Notes under the pieces: model-generated
Database searches by the model: none
Told to the model about the DNA's origin: nothing
What the model saw: only the letters and a program-made list of their open reading frames with translations
Made by a program: the position numbers and the translations under genes
Shown here: piece after piece, positions 1,606-15,419 of the stretch
How positions within the stretch are numbered: the first letter of the stretch is position 1
How the letters are laid out: each line of letters opens with the position of its first letter
UHGV virus genome: UHGV-1561483
Reading direction: 5' to 3' (one strand)
Origin: a virus
Length of the DNA stretch: 16,178 nucleotides

Positions 1606-2067
1606 ATGATTATTAATGAAAACTCTTGGCACTATAAATTATTCAAATTGTTTAACGATGAATGGCAACGACCTAAGACACTATGCGCATATTTTTGGTC
1701 TATTGCCATTCCTACATTTTTCGTTTCTATTTTTGGATGTGCTATACTCGTAGGGCTAACAATTATTTGTGCAGAAAGCCTACAACGTTGGCTTATTTTT
1801 GGTAGTTTATGGACTTTGCTTCCATCAGCATTTATACTTGCGATTTTGGTTGTTTTACTTATTATCGGTTCATTTGTTATTCCTGCACATTTGTGTGAAA
1901 AATATAAAGATTATAAATGGAAAAAGGATTATGCTTTACACGTAGAAAATATTGATAGGGCGTATAAAGGTTTACCTCCTATTCAACCCAAGAAATCGAT
2001 TATCGTTGAATTTTTAAAAGCTCGTAAAGCTAAAGTATGTCCTGTTATTGAATATAAGGCTGAATGA
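1606..2067 (+). CDS. predicted small membrane protein (153 aa, 2-3 hydrophobic helices)
   Basis: AAAGGA (1594-1599) then ATG 1606; long hydrophobic stretches (FWSIAIPTFFVSIFGCAILVGLTIICA, LLPSAFILAILVVLLIIGSFVIP). Confidence 0.6.
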   Translation: MIINENSWHYKLFKLFNDEWQRPKTLCAYFWSIAIPTFFVSIFGCAILVGLTIICAESLQRWLIFGSLWTLLPSAFILAILVVLLIIGSFVIPAHLCEKYKDYKWKKDYALHVENIDRAYKGLPPIQPKKSIIVEFLKARKAKVCPVIEYKAE

Positions 2068-3077
2068 TGAAAACAGTAATGAAAAGCTATTTTGGTAGTC
2101 ATCTTTATGGAACTTCTACCCCAGAATCTGATGTAGATTTTAAAGAAATCTTTGTTCCTCCTGCTCGCGATATTCTTATCGGAAATGTCAAAGAGCATAT
2201 GAGTAAAAACACTAACAACACATCATCTAAAAACACTAAAGATGATATTGACCATGAACTATACAGTCTTAAGTATTTCTTTAAATTAGCAGCAGATGGT
2301 GAAACCGTAGCATTGGATATGCTCCACACTCCACCTGAGCTAGTGGTTAAATCTGATTTACCTGATGTATGGAAATTTATCCAAGACAATCGTTCACGGT
2401 TTTATACAACTAACATGAAATCCTATTTAGGATATGTCCGCAAGCAAGCTTCTAAATACGGTGTCAAGGGTTCTCGTTTGGCCGCATTACGTGATGTATT
2501 GAAAGTAGTTAATCAAATCCCTGAGCAGTGGGTTGATTATCAAGAAGGAATTCCAGATCGTCTCCGACGTACGAAGGTAGAAGATATTAAACATCGTCTT
2601 CCAGAAAACGAGTTCTGTGAATGGGTGTTCCATAATCATGAGAAAACAGGCCCGCAAACGTTCTATACTGTGTTGGGTCGTAAATATCAGACAACGCTTT
2701 CTCTTATTGAGCTTAAGCAGTCTTTGAATAAACTTGATGCTGAATACGGCGAACGTGCTCGTAAAGCTGAAGCGAATGAGGGTATTGACTGGAAAGCTCT
2801 GAGTCATGCTTGTCGTGGTGGACTCCAATTGTTGGAAATTTACAAAACTGGTGACTTAGTTTATCCACTCCAAGATGCTCCATTTATTCTCGACGTGAAG
2901 CTGGGTAAGCATCCATTTAAAACAGTTCAAGAGTTTTTGGAAGATGTGGTCGATCAAGTAGAAGCAGCATCAATTGAAGCTTCTAAGAACGGTATGCAAC
3001 AAAAAGTAGACATGGGTTTCTGGGATGACTTCCTTGAGAGGGTGTATCTCGAAAACCATCGAAGTTATTATAAATGA
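2064..3077 (+). CDS. nucleotidyltransferase-fold protein (337 aa)
   Basis: N-terminal motif GSHLYGTSTPESDVDF (G-S-x10-D-x-D, nt about 2094-2141) typical of pol-beta-type/minimal nucleotidyltransferases, with a downstream acidic ALDMLH that could supply the third carboxylate. ATGATG start overlaps the upstream stop; followed by an intrinsic terminator. Confidence 0.6.
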   Translation: MMKTVMKSYFGSHLYGTSTPESDVDFKEIFVPPARDILIGNVKEHMSKNTNNTSSKNTKDDIDHELYSLKYFFKLAADGETVALDMLHTPPELVVKSDLPDVWKFIQDNRSRFYTTNMKSYLGYVRKQASKYGVKGSRLAALRDVLKVVNQIPEQWVDYQEGIPDRLRRTKVEDIKHRLPENEFCEWVFHNHEKTGPQTFYTVLGRKYQTTLSLIELKQSLNKLDAEYGERARKAEANEGIDWKALSHACRGGLQLLEIYKTGDLVYPLQDAPFILDVKLGKHPFKTVQEFLEDVVDQVEAASIEASKNGMQQKVDMGFWDDFLERVYLENHRSYYK

Positions 3078-3079
3078 TA

Positions 3080-3106
3080 GGGAGCCTTCGGGCTCCCTTT
3101 TTTTAT
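3080..3106 (+). terminator. Rho-independent terminator (GGGAGCC-TTCG-GGCTCCC + T7)
   Basis: Perfect 7-bp GC-rich stem with a UUCG tetraloop (3080-3097) followed directly by TTTTTTT (3098-3104). Confidence 0.85.
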
Positions 3107-3129
3107 TTCAAAAATTTTTTCACAAAACG

Positions 3130-3159
3130 GTTTACAAGCATAAAGCTTTATGGTACTAT
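3130..3159 (+). promoter_or_regulatory. T4-early-type sigma70 promoter (GTTTAC -35, 18-bp spacer, TGG-TACTAT -10)
   Basis: GTTTAC at 3130-3135, TACTAT at 3154-3159, A/T-rich upstream; same architecture as the 4568 and 15390 promoters. Confidence 0.65.
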
Positions 3160-3172
3160 ACAACTATCAACT
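3151..3172 (+). repeat. 22-bp exact direct repeat, copy 1 (TGGTACTATACAACTATCAACT)
   Basis: Identical 22-mer recurs at 4589-4610; covers the -10 and the start of the 5' UTR of two promoters. Confidence 0.9.
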
Positions 3173-3193
3173 GATACGGATTTGGAGAATAAA

Positions 3194-4162
3194 ATGAAAA
3201 CTGTAACTATCAATAAGGGTATCTACTTCGGTAAAGAAATCTCTGGAACTTTTGAGCTCTTAGGCGAATGGTTCCCAGATAATGCTCCGGTAGATGCACA
3301 AGGAGATGGTAAAGTTTTTGTTGAAATTGACGGTAAACGTCGCGGTGTTTGGGTTTACAAATCAGATATTTCATATGATGGTGTAAAAGTTGAAGAAGTT
3401 AAAGAATCGTATGAAGATATGAAAACCCGCATTAATAAAAGATTTAATGTTATGGGAATGATGACGAATGGTATTATTAATGGAAATATTCGTTCATTAA
3501 TTATCTCTGGCGCAGCAGGTATTGGTAAAACGTATTCTTTAGATAAAGCTTTAAATAAAGCAAATGATATTGGATACATTGAATATAAAAGCATTAATGG
3601 TAAAATCTCTGGTATTGGTCTTTATGAGCAGCTTTGGAATAATCGTGAAGAGAATTCTGTCCTTTTGATTGATGATGTGGATGTTTTCTCTGATATGGAC
3701 ATTCTTAATCTTCTAAAAGCTGCTCTGGACACTGGAGAGACCCGTAAAGTCTGCTGGAGCACTGCGTCTTCTTACTTAGAAGAAAAAGGCATTGAGCGTG
3801 AGTTTGAATTTAAAGGAACGATTGTTTTTATCACAAACGTTGACATTGACCGTGAATTAGACCGTGGTACTAAACTTGCTCCACACTTACAAGCATTAGT
3901 GTCCCGCTCGGTTTATTTAGATTTGGGCGTTCACACTAATGAAGAAATTATGGTCAGGGTTGAAGATGTTATTCTTTCAACTGACATGATGCAAAAGCGC
4001 GGTCTTTCTGATGAAGAAACTTATAAAGCATTATCATGGATGAAAGTTAATGTTAATCGTTTACGCAATGTTTCACTGCGTACTGCTCTTTATCTTGCTG
4101 ACTTTATTATGACCGACAAAAACGGTTGGGAAGAAATTGCTGAGGTTACTCTTCTGAAATAA
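3194..4162 (+). CDS. AAA+ ATPase-domain protein (322 aa)
   Basis: Walker A GAAGIGKT (nt 3509-3532), Walker B VLLIDDVDV (about 3661-3687), candidate sensor-1 IVFITN. ORF-track start at 3074 runs through the terminator and promoter, so the start was moved to ATG 3194 after GGAG. Confidence 0.7.
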   Translation: MKTVTINKGIYFGKEISGTFELLGEWFPDNAPVDAQGDGKVFVEIDGKRRGVWVYKSDISYDGVKVEEVKESYEDMKTRINKRFNVMGMMTNGIINGNIRSLIISGAAGIGKTYSLDKALNKANDIGYIEYKSINGKISGIGLYEQLWNNREENSVLLIDDVDVFSDMDILNLLKAALDTGETRKVCWSTASSYLEEKGIEREFEFKGTIVFITNVDIDRELDRGTKLAPHLQALVSRSVYLDLGVHTNEEIMVRVEDVILSTDMMQKRGLSDEETYKALSWMKVNVNRLRNVSLRTALYLADFIMTDKNGWEEIAEVTLLK

Positions 4163-4259
4163 TTCATAAGAGGACTTCTATGACAAAAGGCAGTTCAGAA
4201 ATAGATTATATGGACTGCCATTAAAAAGATGACTAGAATTAAACTGGTGAATGGAGGTA

Positions 4260-4565: not shown

Positions 4566-4567
4566 TG

Positions 4568-4597
4568 GTTTACAAGACTGTTCCTCTGTGGTACTAT
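4568..4597 (+). promoter_or_regulatory. T4-early-type sigma70 promoter
   Basis: GTTTAC 4568-4573, 18-bp spacer, TACTAT 4592-4597; near-identical to the promoter at 3130-3159. Confidence 0.65.
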
Positions 4598-4610
4598 ACA
4601 ACTATCAACT
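4589..4610 (+). repeat. 22-bp exact direct repeat, copy 2 (TGGTACTATACAACTATCAACT)
   Basis: Identical to 3151-3172; embedded in the promoter upstream of the 4626 gene. Confidence 0.9.
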
Positions 4611-7606: not shown

Positions 7607-8608
7607 ATGACTCGTAACGAATATATCAAATCATTCAATAGCGTTATTGATGATAAAGCTATACCGATGTTTGGCCAAAATAGCGTTCTTTCTATTATCA
7701 ATCAATGGCTCAATAGTGTTGATGCAAGTATTGTTTCTTCTACTAAATTTATTCATGAAATTCGTAAAATTTCTAGCCGTGTAGATAAAGATGTTATCAA
7801 GAAAACCTTTAAAGAGTCTCGTCTTCTTTCATATTTGGTTAATCGGGATATTCTTGGTAATTTTGGGAAAGAAATTAAACGAACCAAAGATGTAGTAGGA
7901 TATAATTGGTTCGGTGATGTTAATTCTTATCATCTTAATAATAAAGAAGACCCTGAGAATATTTTTACTCGTCGTTGGATTAGTAATTTCAGACTTTTCA
8001 AAGGACAGATTCTAAAATCAGCTTCTAAATTATGTTATGGCGATTATCGTCAAATTCATCCTTTGGCTTCTGATATGATTATCATAAAAGAATATGAACT
8101 TGATAAAAATAAAGTATCTATTTTTGTGAATTATGGATTTTTTACACCAGAAACTAACCAAAAGAATATTAATAAATTTTTCTCAATTGCTAGCACTATA
8201 ACTCGTCAATTAGAGACCGCATTACTTTGTATGGAAACAGTAGAAAATATTCATACATATCCTTTTAAGAATATATGCGGATGGGAAGGATATAAAATTG
8301 TAATTAGTCTTCGTGAAGTGAAATGTGCTTATTCACCTACTGATAAAGAAATTTATCAACAAAAATGTGAGGAAATTGTGAATACTCCTAAAGAAGAAAC
8401 TACCCTTGAGGAACTAATGGATAATCTTGATGATTCGCCTGAACCGGTAGAAATTCGTCCAGAAGTTATTGCACTAGAAAAAGCTTATAAAGAAGTTCTA
8501 GAAATTTCTAATAAAGCACAGAAAGAATATGAGCAGGCTAAAAGGATTTGGGAAGAATCTGTTAATCGTCTTGATCGTCTGGAACAAGCTTTACAGTTAA
8601 TTAAGTAA
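7607..8608 (+). CDS. hypothetical protein, paralog family member 3 (333 aa)
   Basis: ORF-track start 7577 sits inside the TATAAT; ATG 7607 follows GAGGAG (7596-7601). N-terminus MTRNEYIKSFNS resembles member 4; internal motif LFKGQILKSASKLCYGD; linker SPEPVEIRPEV; C-terminal coiled coil. Confidence 0.7.
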   Translation: MTRNEYIKSFNSVIDDKAIPMFGQNSVLSIINQWLNSVDASIVSSTKFIHEIRKISSRVDKDVIKKTFKESRLLSYLVNRDILGNFGKEIKRTKDVVGYNWFGDVNSYHLNNKEDPENIFTRRWISNFRLFKGQILKSASKLCYGDYRQIHPLASDMIIIKEYELDKNKVSIFVNYGFFTPETNQKNINKFFSIASTITRQLETALLCMETVENIHTYPFKNICGWEGYKIVISLREVKCAYSPTDKEIYQQKCEEIVNTPKEETTLEELMDNLDDSPEPVEIRPEVIALEKAYKEVLEISNKAQKEYEQAKRIWEESVNRLDRLEQALQLIK

Positions 8609-8660
8609 TTTAAAGCCAAGGATGGCTCGGAGTATAAACTATTAACCAAGTGAGAAGAAC

Positions 8661-9587
8661 ATGAAAACTCGTAAACATTATATTGATTATTTTGACAGTC
8701 TTATTACTAAACATCGTAATTATCAGATAGGACACAGAGCAGTAATCAATAATATTCTTCGTGATTTTTTAGACTATATTGGATGGGAAAACCATATTTG
8801 TAAAGATACACAAAATGCGTATTCACATTCTCTTGGTTCTTTGCTCGAGTGGTTCAAACGTTCCCGATTACTATCTTCTGTGATAGCTGTTAATAATGTT
8901 AAAAAATTTATGTATCCAAGCTACATTGAGACTAATGTATCAAATGCTAGTGTTGTTACATTTAATATTATTAACGACGTGAAAAGAACTTATTTAGAAG
9001 AATGGTTTTCTAAAGATAGTAAAGAAAAATTTGCCAGTGAGTTTTCACACGAATTTAATAATAATGTGAATATGCTTTTTAAGCATTCTCGTAGACTGTT
9101 TTGTCATGGCGATGACCGTACTATTAATGTAAATGTAAAAGATTGGGTTACGGCTAAATTCATTCCATCATCACAGAATGGACCATTTGAATTGTCAATT
9201 ATTGTTTGTGCTCCGCATGAAATATATAAAAATATTCCATATATGAAACCATGTGAAGCTAATAAACATAATAAAACGATTCGTTCTTTGACTTATAATC
9301 TTCGTACGTTATTGTCTAAAATGGACGTAGTTGAATCCTTTGATGATAATACGAATTATGGTCTTTCACTATTTGAAACTAAAGTTGTTATTAAGTTAAA
9401 GGACCCTAGTAAATTTAAACCTACGCCAAAGCCCAATCGTGGGAATGATACTATGAAAGAAGAACGCGAATATCTCAGTGCTCGTTTGATTGAAGTTGAA
9501 AAACAGATTGAAGAGCATACTAAAGTTATTAAGGCTTTAACTGCCAAAGCAAATGGTTTACGTGATGCTATTGAGGTACTGAAATGA
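8661..9587 (+). CDS. hypothetical protein, paralog family member 4 (308 aa)
   Basis: N-terminus MKTRKHYIDYFDS, internal motif LFKHSRRLFCHGDD, linker PSKFKPTPKPN, heptad-like C-terminal helix. Weak RBS. Confidence 0.65.
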   Translation: MKTRKHYIDYFDSLITKHRNYQIGHRAVINNILRDFLDYIGWENHICKDTQNAYSHSLGSLLEWFKRSRLLSSVIAVNNVKKFMYPSYIETNVSNASVVTFNIINDVKRTYLEEWFSKDSKEKFASEFSHEFNNNVNMLFKHSRRLFCHGDDRTINVNVKDWVTAKFIPSSQNGPFELSIIVCAPHEIYKNIPYMKPCEANKHNKTIRSLTYNLRTLLSKMDVVESFDDNTNYGLSLFETKVVIKLKDPSKFKPTPKPNRGNDTMKEEREYLSARLIEVEKQIEEHTKVIKALTAKANGLRDAIEVLK

Positions 9588-9901
9588 AAAAGCGTTTATT
9601 AGAAGATATTGCAGCTTCAAGTAATTCCAGTCTAATTAAAATTATTATGGCTGGTGAAGAAGACGATCTGGAAATGCGTGGAAAGATTCATGGTTGTGAC
9701 GATTTAGATTTTAAACCTCCAGCTTGGGATGCCATTATGGCTATGGTTGAACGTCGCGAAAGGGCTTCTAAAAGCGTTCCTAATTGTCCTGAATGCGGTA
9801 CTGAACAGGTTCAATTAGTCCATTGGCAGACTAGTAATCTTCGTTATAAATGCCGTCATTGCAAACACCGATTTAACCGAGAAGAAAATGACCAAGCGTA
9901 A
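9584..9901 (+). CDS. small zinc-ribbon protein (105 aa)
   Basis: CPECG-x17-CRHCKH cysteine pairs at the C-terminus; ATGA overlap with upstream stop, GAGGT RBS. Confidence 0.6.
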
Positions 9902-10130
9902 AGAATATATGGAGATTGCTGAAAAGGCAGTACGTGAATTAGCAATAGCATATTATAATGAACATGGTAAATTTCCTGATAGATACAGCGTGCTTAAATC
10001 TGCTTTAACTCGTTCATATAAAAATATGCTATCAGAAGTAAGTGATATTATATACAAACATAAAGAACAAACGGGCCAAAGTCTTGATTACGACGAGACT
10101 TTTAAACAAGTACTAGGAATTAAGGAATAA
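9888..10130 (+). CDS. hypothetical protein (80 aa)
   Basis: ATG 9888 overlaps the upstream gene by 14 nt; ends 1 nt before nrdC. Confidence 0.5.
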
Positions 10131-10131
10131 T

Positions 10132-10395
10132 ATGTTTAAAGTATATGGTTATGATAGCAACATCCATAAATGTGTGTATTGCGATAATGCAAAACGTCTT
10201 TTGACTGTGAAGAAACAGCCGTTTGAATTTATCAATATTATGCCGGAAAAAGGTGTTTTTGATGATGAGAAAATCGCTGAGCTTCTGACGAAACTAGGTC
10301 GTGATACTCAAATTGGTTTGACAATGCCACAAGTATTTGCTCCTGATGGAAGTCATATTGGCGGATTTGACCAATTGCGGGAATACTTTAAATGA
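10132..10395 (+). CDS. nrdC: thioredoxin/glutaredoxin (hydrogen donor for ribonucleotide reductase)
   Basis: 87-aa ORF with CVYC active site at residues 14-17 and AAGGA RBS; length and sequence match my recollection of T-even NrdC. Confidence 0.88.
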   Translation: MFKVYGYDSNIHKCVYCDNAKRLLTVKKQPFEFINIMPEKGVFDDEKIAELLTKLGRDTQIGLTMPQVFAPDGSHIGGFDQLREYFK

Positions 10396-10607
10396 TGCTC
10401 GAAGGAACTGATTATATCCATGACTACCGCGGAAGCGCGGTATATGTAGGTGATGAGGTTGCAGTTTATTACGGGTATGGAACTTTGATGACAGCAAAGG
10501 TTATTCAAATTAAAAATAACCGTGCTAAACTCGAAGTTTATTATTCTAATGGTGAAAAGTCTATTTCTAAGTGGAAATACGGCGATTGCATGGTCAAACT
10601 GGGGTAA
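10392..10607 (+). CDS. hypothetical small protein (71 aa)
   Basis: ATGA overlap with the nrdC stop. Confidence 0.55.
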   Translation: MMLEGTDYIHDYRGSAVYVGDEVAVYYGYGTLMTAKVIQIKNNRAKLEVYYSNGEKSISKWKYGDCMVKLG

Positions 10608-10609
10608 AT

Positions 10610-10780
10610 ATGATTTACGATATTAATGTAGCAAGAGCTCCGTCAATGGTTACTATTCCAGCTGAAGAATTAGATCGTCTTCAGAAAATTGAAGAGCTTC
10701 TTTGGGAAATTGAATCTGATTTGCCATCAGGATTAGAATCCTGGATTGACTATGAAGAACTTAATAAATTGCGAAATTAA
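10610..10780 (+). CDS. hypothetical small acidic protein (56 aa)
   Basis: ORF-track start 10571 is GTG inside the previous gene; ATG 10610 lies 2 nt after the upstream stop. Confidence 0.45.
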   Translation: MIYDINVARAPSMVTIPAEELDRLQKIEELLWEIESDLPSGLESWIDYEELNKLRN

Positions 10781-10790
10781 GTGGTGACAA

Positions 10791-11111
10791 ATGACTATTG
10801 AAAATAAATTAGATGTTGATGCAGTTCTGAGTGAAATCATTGAAGACCATGATGCATTTTCAGAAAACTATGATTTCGATTTTTCCGATTATCTTAAACC
10901 TATCGAAATAGAAGACTGGGTGCAAGATGGTAAATGCCAATATCGTCAGTGTGTTTATTTTAGTCCAAAACATAATGTACATGTGGCTGTAAATGAATCT
11001 CGCTCAGGTTCTTATCATTCTGACTGGTATTATGCAGTTCCGACTGTTGAACTAGTCGAGCCCCATGAACGTGTAGTAACTCAGACAGTACGAGAATGGA
11101 TTACGCTATAA
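10791..11111 (+). CDS. hypothetical acidic protein (106 aa)
   Basis: ATG 10791 after GGTGA; same-strand operon context. Confidence 0.55.
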   Translation: MTIENKLDVDAVLSEIIEDHDAFSENYDFDFSDYLKPIEIEDWVQDGKCQYRQCVYFSPKHNVHVAVNESRSGSYHSDWYYAVPTVELVEPHERVVTQTVREWITL

Positions 11112-11899: not shown

Positions 11900-12373
11900 A
11901 TGTTATTGACTGGCAAATTATACAAAGAAGAAAAACAGAAATTTTATAATGCACAAAACGGTAAATGCTTAATTTGCCAACGAGAACTAAATCCTGATGT
12001 TCAAGCTAATCACCTTGACCATGACCATGAATTAAATGGACCAAAAGCAGGAAAGGTACGTGGATTGCTCTGTAATCTCTGTAATGCTGCAGAAGGTCAA
12101 ATGAAGCATAAATTCAATCGTTCTGGCTTAAAGGGACAAGGTGTTGATTATCTTGAATGGCTAGAAAATTTACTTACTTATTTAAAATCCGATTACACCC
12201 AAAATAATATTCACCCTAACTTCGTTGGAGATAAATCAAAGGAATTTTCTCGTTTAGGAAAAGAGGAAATGATGGCTGAGATGCTTCAAAGAGGATTTGA
12301 ATATAATGAATCTGACACTAAAACACAATTAATAGCTTCATTTAAGAAGCAGCTTAGAAAGAGTTTAAAATGA
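11900..12373 (+). CDS. 49: endonuclease VII (Holliday-junction resolving / packaging endonuclease)
   Basis: 157-aa ORF; N-terminus MLLTGKLYKEEKQKF recognised; Zn ligands Cys23, Cys26, Cys58, Cys61 and catalytic Asp40/His41/Asn62/Glu65 all at the positions known for T4 endo VII. Confidence 0.92.
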   Translation: MLLTGKLYKEEKQKFYNAQNGKCLICQRELNPDVQANHLDHDHELNGPKAGKVRGLLCNLCNAAEGQMKHKFNRSGLKGQGVDYLEWLENLLTYLKSDYTQNNIHPNFVGDKSKEFSRLGKEEMMAEMLQRGFEYNESDTKTQLIASFKKQLRKSLK

Positions 12374-14187
12374 CAATTGAAAAAGAAATTGAAGGATTGA
12401 TTCATAAAACTAATAAAGACCTTTTAAACGAGAATGCTAATAAAGATTCTCGTGTTTTTCCAACTCAACGGGACCTTATGGCTGGTATTGTGTCTAAACA
12501 CATTGCCAAAAATATGGTCCCGTCTTTTATTATGAAAGCGCATGAAAGCGGAATTATCCATTTCCATGATATTGATTATTCCCCTGCTCTTCCATTTACT
12601 AATTGCTGTTTAGTAGATTTAAAAGGAATGCTTGAAAACGGATTTAAGCTCGGTAATGCACAGATTGAAACTCCTAAATCAATCGGCGTTGCTACTGCAA
12701 TTATGGCACAAATTACTGCACAGGTTGCTTCTCATCAATATGGCGGAACGACTTTTGCGAATGTAGATAAAGTACTTTCTCCTTATGTTAAACGCACCTA
12801 CGCGAAACATATTGAGGACGCGGAAAAATGGCAAATCGCTGATGCGTTGAATTACGCCCAGTCTAAAACAGAAAAAGACGTATATGATGCATTCCAAGCT
12901 TATGAATATGAAGTAAATACTCTCTTTAGTTCAAACGGACAAACGCCTTTTGTAACAATTACGTTTGGTACGGGAACTGACTGGACTGAACGAATGATTC
13001 AGAAGGCAATTCTGAAAAATCGTATTAAAGGTCTTGGTCGCGATGGGATAACTCCTATTTTCCCTAAGCTTGTTATGTTCGTTGAAGAAGGTGTTAATCT
13101 TTATAAAGATGACCCGAACTATGATATTAAACAGCTTGCTCTAGAGTGCGCAAGCAAAAGAATGTATCCTGACATCATTTCGGCTAAGAACAATAAAGCT
13201 ATCACCGGTTCATCTATTCCTGTTTCTCCAATGGGTTGCCGCAGTTTCTTGAGCGTATGGAAAGATTCGACTGGCAATGAAATTCTTGATGGACGTAATA
13301 ATCTTGGTGTTGTAACATTGAATCTTCCTCGCATCGCGTTAGATTCTTATATTGGAACACAATTCAATGAACAGAAATTTGTTGAATTGTTCAATGAACG
13401 AATGGATTTGTGTTTTGAAGCTTTGATGTGTAGAATTAGTTCCTTAAAAGGAGTTAAAGCGACTGTTGCTCCTATTCTTTACCAAGAAGGTGCATTCGGG
13501 GTTCGTCTTAAACCCGATGACGACATAATTGAGTTATTTAAAAACGGTAGAAGTTCAGTGTCTTTGGGATACATTGGTATTCACGAATTGAATATTCTTG
13601 TCGGTCGTGATATTGGGCAGGAAATTTTAACTAAAATGAATGCTCGTCTTAAGCAGTGGACTGAAAGAACCGGTTTTGCTTTTAGCTTGTATTCTACTCC
13701 TGCTGAAAACCTGTGCTATCGCTTCTGTAAACTTGATACTGAGAAATATGGAAGTGTAAAAGATGTTACTGATAAAGGATGGTACACTAATAGTTTCCAT
13801 GTTTCAGTAGAAGAAAATATCACTCCGTTTGAAAAGATTTCTCGAGAAGCACCATATCATTTCATTGCGACAGGTGGTCACATTTCTTATGTTGAACTTC
13901 CTGATATGAAAAATAACTTAAAAGGTCTTGAGGCTGTATGGGATTATGCTGCACAACATTTAGATTATTTTGGCGTTAACATGCCAGTAGATAAATGTTT
14001 TACATGTGGAAGTACCCATGAAATGACTCCTACTGAAAACGGGTTTGTTTGTTCTATTTGTGGAGAAACTGATCCTAAAAAGATGAACACAATAAGAAGA
14101 ACTTGTGGTTATTTGGGAAATCCGAACGAACGTGGATTTAATCTTGGCAAAAATAAAGAAATCATGCATAGGGTTAAACACCAATGA
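12370..14187 (+). CDS. nrdD: anaerobic (class III) ribonucleoside-triphosphate reductase, uninterrupted
   Basis: 605-aa ORF; C-terminal zinc ribbon CFTC-x14-CSIC at residues 543-564 and glycyl-radical motif RRTCGYLG with Gly580 (nt 14107-14109), matching T4 NrdD numbering. ATGA overlaps with gene 49 and nrdG. Confidence 0.95.
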   Translation: MTIEKEIEGLIHKTNKDLLNENANKDSRVFPTQRDLMAGIVSKHIAKNMVPSFIMKAHESGIIHFHDIDYSPALPFTNCCLVDLKGMLENGFKLGNAQIETPKSIGVATAIMAQITAQVASHQYGGTTFANVDKVLSPYVKRTYAKHIEDAEKWQIADALNYAQSKTEKDVYDAFQAYEYEVNTLFSSNGQTPFVTITFGTGTDWTERMIQKAILKNRIKGLGRDGITPIFPKLVMFVEEGVNLYKDDPNYDIKQLALECASKRMYPDIISAKNNKAITGSSIPVSPMGCRSFLSVWKDSTGNEILDGRNNLGVVTLNLPRIALDSYIGTQFNEQKFVELFNERMDLCFEALMCRISSLKGVKATVAPILYQEGAFGVRLKPDDDIIELFKNGRSSVSLGYIGIHELNILVGRDIGQEILTKMNARLKQWTERTGFAFSLYSTPAENLCYRFCKLDTEKYGSVKDVTDKGWYTNSFHVSVEENITPFEKISREAPYHFIATGGHISYVELPDMKNNLKGLEAVWDYAAQHLDYFGVNMPVDKCFTCGSTHEMTPTENGFVCSICGETDPKKMNTIRRTCGYLGNPNERGFNLGKNKEIMHRVKHQ

Positions 14188-14654
14188 ATTATGATAGATT
14201 TTATCCTTGCGATTTTGTGAATGGCCCTGGATGCAGGGTCGTTCTTTTCGTTACAGGTTGTTTGCATAAATGCGAAGGGTGTTATAATAAATCAACATGG
14301 AATGCTAGAAATGGCGTTCCATTCACTGGTGAAACACTAGAACAATTAATTGAATGTTTGAATAATGATTATATAGAAGGATTAACTATAACTGGAGGTG
14401 ACCCTCTTTATCCTGATAACCGAGATGTTATTCATTGCATTGTTCAAACAGTAAAAAATCTTTATCCGAATAAAAGCATTTGGTTGTGGACCGGATATAA
14501 GTTTGAGGATATTAAACAACTAGAAATGCTTAAATATGTTGATGTTATTATTGATGGGAAGTATGAGAAAAATCTTCCGACCAAAAAGCTGTGGCGAGGA
14601 TCAGATAATCAGCGACTTTGGTCAAATACCGATGGGGTGTGGAAACATGATTAA
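14184..14654 (+). CDS. nrdG: anaerobic ribonucleotide reductase activating protein (radical SAM)
   Basis: 156-aa ORF; CLHKCEGC (CxxxCxxC) cluster near the N-terminus; ATGA-coupled to nrdD. Confidence 0.92.
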   Translation: MNYDRFYPCDFVNGPGCRVVLFVTGCLHKCEGCYNKSTWNARNGVPFTGETLEQLIECLNNDYIEGLTITGGDPLYPDNRDVIHCIVQTVKNLYPNKSIWLWTGYKFEDIKQLEMLKYVDVIIDGKYEKNLPTKKLWRGSDNQRLWSNTDGVWKHD

Positions 14655-15316: not shown

Positions 15317-15389
15317 TCACATTCTGTATATTACCATTCTAAGCTATCGTTCCCTTCTTATCGTTCCCTAAAATAATTTTCACAAAGTT

Positions 15390-15419
15390 GTTTACAAGAA
15401 GTTCAAACTGTGGTATTAT
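15390..15419 (+). promoter_or_regulatory. T4-early-type sigma70 promoter
   Basis: GTTTAC 15390-15395, 18-bp spacer, TGG-TATTAT 15411-15419; upstream TTTTCACAAA element shared with the 3130 promoter. Confidence 0.65.

Follow-up and report, generated by a model that had tools for sequence, protein, structure and literature searches.

The two genes considered here lie side by side on the plus strand of UHGV virus genome UHGV-1561483, in a stretch of 16,178 nucleotides that is called the window below. A megablast search with positions 2000-4200 of the window matched 709 phage records; in 485 of them, a single match takes in 80% or more of the query. DNA identity is about 97% for the best matches, and almost all of the records come from T4-like phages of Escherichia, Shigella or Yersinia. 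The annotated names under the match in PP01 and T4 are nrdC.11 and nrdC.10, which in both phages belong to an early block with the order mobD.1 ... nrdC.11, nrdC.10 ... nrdC, 49, nrdD, nrdG. The window belongs to the early region of a T4-like phage (Tequatrovirus), and the gene pair consists of the orthologues of T4 nrdC.11 and nrdC.10. The original prediction, made from the sequence alone, had spoken of a phage early region, which agrees with the T4-like early block and with the T4-type early promoter described below; it had recognized a nucleotidyltransferase (NTase) and an ATPase, while missing the names of the genes and the RlaP family to which the first belongs. Both genes have long been catalogued, and the NTase family and likely role of the first are in print already; what the window adds is supporting comparative evidence only.

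The nrdC.11 orthologue (2064..3077, + strand) encodes a protein of 337 aa, which Pfam, PHROG, annotation, AlphaFold2 (AF2) and Foldseek together point to as a pol-beta-type NTase of the RlaP family (PF10127). A second ATG at 2067 is a possible alternative start; it would give 336 aa, as in the 336-aa relatives. The nrdC.10 orthologue (3194..4162, + strand) encodes a predicted AAA+ ATPase of 322 aa, with an N-terminal beta domain (residues 1-61), an AAA+ core (approximately 73-243) and a helical lid/C-terminal region (249-322). Its ATG at 3194 stands six bases past a GGAG (3184-3187), and almost all homologues conserve M1 of the 322-aa form. A mechanical list of open reading frames (ORFs) put the start of this gene at the ATG at 3074; that start was rejected, since its frame crosses the terminator and the promoter that separate the two genes. 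The matching GenBank records often mislabel both genes as 'thioredoxin', apparently from the gene name nrdC, and occasionally give NrdC.11 as 'HNH homing endonuclease'. In 483 Tequatrovirus records NrdC.10 has 99% identity or more, and NrdC.11 mostly has 95-99%, which suggests stronger purifying selection on NrdC.10 than on NrdC.11, despite the laboratory dispensability of the gene.

The Pfam model of RlaP matches NrdC.11 with 43.8 bits against a cutoff of 23 (E = 3.2e-11), and phrog_388, annotated 'nucleotidyltransferase', matches it with E = 2.6e-136. An exhaustive HMMER search with the protein returned 3423 cluster representatives at E <= 1e-3. NrdC.10, for its part, matches phrog_1250, a family annotated as of unknown function, at 1.3e-166, and because of these three Pfam and PHROG values the motifs of the two proteins are not a matter of chance. 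Neither protein was assigned to a significant family by PADLOC or NCBIfam. The NTase motif of NrdC.11, G11-S12-x10-D23-x-D25 (GSHLYGTSTPESDVD at residues 11-25; 2094..2138, + strand), provides the predicted metal-binding carboxylates and is invariant in an alignment of 101 homologues having 33-55% identity to the query. The complete set of invariant residues in this alignment is G11, S12, S22, D23, D25, N57, Y132, R231, K244, H248, R251 and P268, and D61, D63, D85, K131 and K135 are conserved in at least 90% of the sequences. The short stretch DDIDHE (2241..2258, + strand) contains D61 and D63, both fully invariant in a second alignment (A5), and coincides with the start of AF2 strand 62-68; from its conservation and position, D63, possibly with D61, is the candidate third catalytic carboxylate.

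The AF2 model of NrdC.11 (predicted local distance difference test, pLDDT, 93.9) consists of an N-terminal alpha/beta NTase core and a long helical C-terminal domain, with helices 119-151, 214-262 and 285-336 and a beta-rich insert at about residues 155-209. It places G11-S12 at the junction of strand 3-10 and helix 12-15, and D23-x-D25 at the start of strand 24-31. The C-terminal domain (2445..2816, + strand, with the insert at residues 155-209) carries the conserved basic residues K131, K135, R138, R231, K244, H248 and R251. The original prediction of a pol-beta-type NTase is borne out by the invariant GS/DxD motif, by the Pfam RlaP match above cutoff and by the NTase fold that AF2 and Foldseek both find; the look at the C-terminal domain that it had called for finds this domain helical in the AF2 model, with conserved basic residues. 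Judged from sequence and predicted structure, NrdC.11 is thus a member of the pol-beta superfamily with the minimal NTase alpha/beta fold, and within it a member of the RlaP family, as it scores above the Pfam threshold and joins an NTase domain to a helical one in which basic residues are conserved.

Nolan et al. (2006) had already reported a COG3541 nucleotidyltransferase match for nrdC.11 and an AAA match for nrdC.10. Iyer et al. (2021) found RlaP to be the most prevalent among the NTases of jumbo phages, with a distribution that mirrors that of RNA ligases, and predicted that phage RlaPs act ahead of ligation, putting back the nucleotides that RloC-type nucleases have removed. The tRNA repair suggested in the original prediction coincides with this published prediction for the family. 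More recently, Carruthers, Fatma and Huang (preprint, December 2025) showed that two Pseudomonas members, PfRlaP and PaRlaP, add one or two nucleoside monophosphates (NMPs) to RNA 3'-OH ends. The two enzymes prefer Mn2+ and accept all nucleoside triphosphates (NTPs) as well as dATP, and neither DNA nor proteins are substrates. On a mimic of a cleaved tRNA, PfRlaP favours the 3' end of the 5' tRNA half over the acceptor-side strand, and the Pseudomonas RlaPs partially rescue the aminoacylation of a tRNA lacking one anticodon-loop nucleotide. The crystal structure of PfRlaP displays an NTase domain and a helical domain, with a positively charged RNA cleft; the NrdC.11 model has this architecture, and its conserved basic residues recall the cleft. 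T4 NrdC.11 is explicitly marked as an RlaP in the same preprint, in sequence-similarity cluster 5 of PF10127. NrdC.11 resembles the family in passing the Pfam threshold, in the G-S/DxD/D carboxylates, in the succession of an N-terminal NTase domain and a C-terminal helical domain, and in the basic residues.

The best PDB matches of the NrdC.11 model in Foldseek are the aminoglycoside NTases KNT/ANT(4'), the structural-genomics protein 3c18, Hailong HalB and LinB (probability 0.98-1.0). Such a list could be read as meaning that NrdC.11 nucleotidylates a protein or a small molecule: it would then be an MntA-like AMPylase that neutralises a HEPN RNase, or else a transferase of the aminoglycoside/lincosamide type. 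Among solved folds, those of KNT/ANT(4'), AAD(9) and LinB are indeed the closest, and an MntA profile matches weakly over the GS..DxD motif. However, this match reaches 13.2 bits, compared to an NCBIfam cutoff of 60, and covers residues 9-26 only; the structural likeness to the transferases is that of a shared two-domain architecture at 7-15% identity; and PfRlaP and PaRlaP left E. coli proteins unlabelled (Carruthers, Fatma and Huang). We regard a protein or small-molecule target as extremely improbable. The narrower idea that NrdC.11 is the MntA antitoxin of an MNT-HEPN pair was rejected: the match is below cutoff, and a 337-aa protein with a large C-terminal domain is not a small single-domain NTase.

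The presence of HalB, which synthesises oligodeoxyadenylate, among the best matches (probability 0.99-1.0 over about 150 columns) bears on another proposal, namely that NrdC.11 makes or mimics a signalling (oligo)nucleotide, in the manner of HalB or of enzymes related to cGAS/DncV-like nucleotidyltransferases (CD-NTases) and oligoadenylate synthetase (OAS), and so subverts a host defence. The ability of PfRlaP to use dATP (Carruthers, Fatma and Huang) would fit with this. On the other hand, the HalB match concerns the generic NTase core only, with a template modelling (TM) score of about 0.25, Pfam assigns the protein to RlaP, and the bacterial relatives of NrdC.11 adjoin RNA-repair genes, not defence effectors. 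No cGAS or CD-NTase appears among the 50 Foldseek matches listed, and PADLOC, Pfam and NCBIfam are without such a match. The CD-NTase/OAS-like role raised in the original prediction finds no support in these Foldseek and PADLOC results, with MntA falling far below its cutoff as well, and a signalling function is in our opinion highly improbable.

The bacterial relatives just mentioned were collected by scanning one genome per prokaryotic species, and the best 80 of the 156 stretches encoding a relative of NrdC.11 were retained. Their identity to NrdC.11 is 32-54% (34-41% in most cases), and for most of them the alignment extends over almost all of NrdC.11. In 14 of these loci RtcB, Pnkp-Hen1 or TROVE/Ro60 lies no more than 4 kb away, each instance being confirmed by Pfam, and RtcB lies near a NrdC.11 homologue in two phage loci as well. 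The vicinity of RtcB and Pnkp-Hen1 is a trait that these bacterial relatives share with the RlaP family; beside NrdC.11 itself, in the window, in T4 and in most phage loci, there is no RNA-repair gene. The association in the relatives also bears on which RNA end is the target. NrdC.11 might repair some 3' end other than the anticodon-loop break left by RloC-like nucleases, such as the tRNA acceptor (CCA) end or mRNA and rRNA ends trimmed by host toxins: nothing in its sequence specifies the target, and RlaPs label species of the size of rRNA, tRNA and cleaved tRNA with little NTP specificity (Carruthers, Fatma and Huang). Against this stand the preference of PfRlaP for the 5' tRNA half rather than the acceptor-side strand, and the relatives' association with the ligases RtcB and Pnkp, because of which the end that is extended would be one that is later sealed. 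Repair of an end other than the anticodon-loop break appears unlikely, without being negligible.

A second line of evidence for RNA repair comes from the distribution of the genes among phages. In a collection of 50,697 phage records, with the genus taken from the organism name, the counts of NrdC.11, RnlA and PseT were, respectively, 285, 287 and 286 for Klebsiella, 83 each for Shigella, 75, 77 and 77 for Aeromonas, 69 each for Acinetobacter, 56 each for Enterobacter, and 59, 54 and 97 for Vibrio. In five of the six genera the NrdC.11 counts follow those of RnlA and PseT almost exactly, Vibrio deviating by its PseT count. The NrdC.10 counts, in contrast, do not follow them: 149 in Klebsiella, 76 in Shigella, 48 in Aeromonas, 72 in Acinetobacter, 36 in Enterobacter and 121 in Vibrio. 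PseT (Pnkp) and RnlA (Rnl1) form the T4 pathway that counters the PrrC anticodon nuclease, and one phage lineage encodes both of them together with NrdC.11, with coinciding genus distributions. Moreover, the 3'-OH ends that RlaPs produce suit 5'-phosphate ligases such as Rnl1.

Between the two genes lies a terminator followed by a promoter. The hairpin GGGAGCC-UUCG-GGCUCCC and its T-run (3079..3105, + strand) form a predicted intrinsic terminator: the stem at 3079-3098 has 8 bp, of which 6 are G-C pairs, closes on a UUCG loop and is followed by the T-run. The folding energy of -17.1 kcal/mol (z = -3.7) is not reached by any of 200 shuffled sequences. The T4-type early promoter cassette (3110..3172, + strand) comprises an A/T-rich upstream element, the -35 box GTTTACA (3130-3136), a TG-extended -10 box TACTAT (3154-3159) and a leader, so that GTTTACA-N17-TACTAT with its upstream TG spans 3130-3159. 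The pattern GTTTAC-N17-20-TANNNT occurs six times in the window, compared to 0.79 expected. Hairpin, -35, -10 and Shine-Dalgarno sequences are conserved in T4, PP01 and other relatives, and in one relative whose NrdC.11 is 82% identical (L075) the stem is kept by paired changes. The terminator-promoter cassette announced in the original prediction is confirmed by the stable hairpin, the T-run and the early promoter, hairpin and promoter both being conserved.

By its sequence, the cassette is of the PeSL type, the hairpin being its stem-loop half. PeSL cassettes, with the promoter consensus TTTACW-N17-TAYWAT published for PST and T4, mediate modular shuffling in the hyperplastic regions of T4-like phages (Arbiol et al. 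2010, PMC2839356; Comeau et al. 2014, PMC4122927). The nrdC.11/nrdC.10 cassette shares with these systems the order of a stem-loop terminator and an early promoter fitting the consensus, the location in a hyperplastic region, and the insertion or deletion of gene modules at the cassette between related phages. It differs in that no mention of this copy was found in the PeSL papers, and recombination at this copy is deduced from comparative genomics only. Promoter-plus-leader cassettes are repeated in the window, at 3129-3172, 4567-4610 and 15370-15419; two of the copies have 82% identity over 44 nt, and the stretch TGGTACTATACAACTATCAACT within it is the same in both. The CRISPRi-ART guide table also records cross-matches of the T4 nrdC.10 leader with the leaders of imm.1 and gene 20.

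Gene insertion at this place can be seen in phages of the HY01 type; in HY01 itself, a 161-aa gene annotated 'RNA polymerase ADP-ribosylase' stands between nrdC.11 and nrdC.10 (positions 2579-3317 of locus L236, corresponding to 3078-3193 of the window). On its upstream side the insert has the nrdC.11 hairpin with another promoter, and on its downstream side another hairpin with the nrdC.10 promoter and leader. From the sequence of its flanks, this reads as a clear PeSL-type modular insertion, bracketed by two cassettes.

The arrangement of the two genes had raised the question of a two-component module, in which the ATPase would load, remodel or regulate the NTase or its RNA substrate. In Tequatrovirus and related genera the genes are neighbours on one strand, and nrdC.11 always precedes nrdC.10. 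However, a conserved terminator and a separate early promoter stand between them, and only a minority of loci hold both: the two were found within 8 kb in 9 of 69 NrdC.10-anchored viral loci and in 26 of 79 NrdC.11-anchored loci, all of these in enterobacterial or Acinetobacter T4-like lineages, with spacers of 115 to 2284 bp. Some NrdC.11 relatives of 81% identity are without NrdC.10 within 8 kb, and in one contig (L012/L116) the two homologues are 40 kb apart. The genus distributions of the two proteins differ, as seen above, and the bacterial NrdC.11-like loci have no NrdC.10-like recurrent neighbour family, NrdC.10 itself not having been searched there. The idea of a module is unsupported, because the cassette separates the genes and other phages carry extra genes inserted at that point, and we consider it very unlikely. 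The evidence says that nrdC.11 and nrdC.10 are neighbours by local gene order and do not make up a two-part machine. Of the two options left by the original prediction, a paired module and independent genes, co-occurrence, spacer length and inserted genes speak against the first, and the conserved terminator with its separate promoter, the variable spacer and the differing distributions justify the caution expressed in the second.

NrdC.10 itself is, by its motifs and predicted fold, an AAA+ ATPase with the full motif set on a core plus lid. Walker A (GAAGIGKT, residues 106-113; 3509..3532, + strand) has G106, A107, G109, G111 and K112 invariant in 59 homologues, and Walker B (LLIDDVD, residues 157-163; 3662..3682, + strand) has D160 and D161 invariant. 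Sensor-1 N215 (FITN) and a putative arginine finger, R238 (VSRS, SRC-like), are encoded within 3827..3910 (+ strand), and two lid arginines, R291 and R296, which may act as sensor 2, within 4061..4090 (+ strand); all four residues are invariant, and their roles are proposed from position. In the AF2 model (pLDDT 90.4), which shows the beta domain, AAA+ core and helical lid given above, N215 lies past strand 209-214, R238 at the end of helix 229-237, and R296 at the start of lid helix 295-307 with R291 just before it. The earlier recognition of an AAA+ ATPase from its Walker motifs stands, since Walker A and B, sensor 1, the SRS arginine and the lid arginines are invariant and the model has an AAA+ core and lid. 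The protein looks like an active, oligomerising enzyme.

Assigning NrdC.10 to a particular AAA+ clade is less straightforward. The Pfam AAA models match it below their cutoffs only, and PDB sequence searches with NrdC.10 and its full-length profile gave no meaningful match. The AAA+ alpha/beta core plus lid, Walker A and B, the sensor-1 Asn, the SRS (SRC-like) Arg and the lid Arg are all features that it has in common with the MoxR type (NorQ, CbbQ), MCM, the NtrC type, DnaA/Hda and RFC. Where the clamp-loader/RarA-like clade has an SRC motif, NrdC.10 has SRS; clamp-loader matches in PHROG reach only E ~1e-4, and RFC and Hda are among the structural matches without being the best. Clamp loaders lack a pre-sensor-1 insert, whereas the segment between helix 168-178 and strand 209-214 of the NrdC.10 model resembles one. 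The Pfam scans of the ten ORFs around the pair revealed no VWA partner, such as a MoxR-type ATPase might have.

The NrdC.10 family is more widespread than NrdC.11, and often occurs without it. It extends to phages of Vibrio, Aeromonas and Acinetobacter, to the jumbo phages 121Q, Atu_ph07 and PAC2, and to one 65-kb Rhodobacter phage. Among 60 loci of uncultured environmental T4-like contigs, 21 have a gene for a UvsW-like helicase immediately downstream of the NrdC.10 homologue and in the same orientation; UvsX or UvsY is also nearby in some of them, and this arrangement is kept across NrdC.10 homologues that are mutually 35-48% identical. The annotated neighbourhoods of NrdC.10 in four cultured phages (PAC2, 121Q, RcRudolph and Atu_ph07) have no consistent partner. 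In the contigs L019-L057 (at about positions 8000-11000), the closest cultured relative of the NrdC.10 homologues is that of the Pseudomonas jumbo phage PAC2, with 42% identity. The UvsW-like neighbourhood is a weak hint at a function in replication or recombination. That phrog_1250 is an uncharacterised, widely conserved phage AAA+ family working with the recombination/replication machinery is a tentative proposal, to which we attach a small but real chance.

The surroundings of the pair vary among the phages compared. Directly upstream of nrdC.11, T4 has the mobD HNH homing endonuclease, and the window has ORFs 1082-1603 and 1606-2067, as does PP01. The ORFs at 512-1075 and 1082-1603 are tandem paralogues, each with the Pfam T4_y05I_N and T4_y05I_C 'putative transcription factor' domains. 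Further downstream, 9888-10130 is the nrdC.1 orthologue, and nrdD (12370-14654, 605 aa) is uninterrupted and abuts nrdG; by comparison, T4 nrdD contains the I-TevII intron, and in PP01 the homing endonuclease segH lies between nrdD and nrdG. Rfam and tRNA scans of the window gave no match.

Taking these data together, we hold with moderate confidence that nrdC.11 and nrdC.10 are two independent, non-essential early genes of a hyperplastic region, split by a mobile-type PeSL cassette, with NrdC.11 extending the PseT/Rnl1 pathway of tRNA repair and NrdC.10 being a separate ATPase. The activity of NrdC.11 is most likely that of its Pseudomonas homologues, and the tRNA target is likewise inferred. 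Two divalent metal ions, probably Mn2+, would be coordinated by D23, D25 and D61/D63. A broken RNA lying in the basic cleft, with the NTase domain on one side and the helical domain on the other, would be extended at its 3'-OH by one or two NMPs without a template. These would replace nucleotides that RloC-like anticodon nucleases excise after cutting, and ligation via PseT (Pnkp) and Rnl1 would then regenerate a usable tRNA. NrdC.10 would be a separately transcribed, probably oligomeric AAA+ ATPase acting in another process, our best guess being DNA replication or recombination, or else protein remodelling.

Several observations weigh against this interpretation. Concerning the family assignment, the Pfam RlaP alignment is limited to model positions 23-143 of 249, that is, its N-terminal half; the Foldseek E-values are weak (about 3e-3), with TM scores of 0.24-0.30; and PDB sequence searches with NrdC.11, with its full-length profile and with a profile of the N-terminal NTase domain alone gave no meaningful match, the PfRlaP crystal structure not being detectable in the PDB copy used. 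The RlaPs assayed by Carruthers, Fatma and Huang belong to cluster 1a, whereas T4 NrdC.11 belongs to cluster 5 and, unlike them, has in its model the beta-rich insert mentioned above; the same authors note that untemplated addition gives the correct nucleotide only sometimes. As to genomic context, T4 encodes both pseT and rnlA, but about 80 kb away from nrdC.11, and in T4-like phages no ligase adjoins the gene. Pfam scans of the ten ORFs around the pair in the window found no RNA-repair gene, and clustering of the neighbourhoods of distant phage NrdC.11 loci revealed no recurrent RNA-repair neighbour, only lineage synteny. Two neighbour families do recur in these distant loci; we take them, by eye, to be NadV- and NatV-like and to serve in the salvage of nicotinamide adenine dinucleotide. 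The match between NrdC.11, RnlA and PseT rests on aggregate genus counts, not on per-genome intersections. Finally, no phenotype is known for nrdC.11 or nrdC.10.

Both genes are dispensable in T4. A fragment extending from nrdC.11 to mobD.3 was lost in a T4 genome-reduction study, CRISPRi-ART scored nrdC.11 and nrdC.10 as 'Not Fit', and HIDEN-SEQ transposon mapping classified both as non-essential (insertions at 69/71 and 65/68 sites). This dispensability fits with accessory, host-specific roles, and because of it the role proposed for NrdC.11 is directly testable by T4 genetics. Should NrdC.10 work with the recombination and replication machinery, T4 would have an overlooked accessory ATPase for recombination-dependent replication. 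If NrdC.11 does restore the nucleotides excised by RloC, it would be a third enzyme in the classic PseT/Rnl1 tRNA-repair pathway of T4, and would add another round to the contest between phage and host over tRNA.

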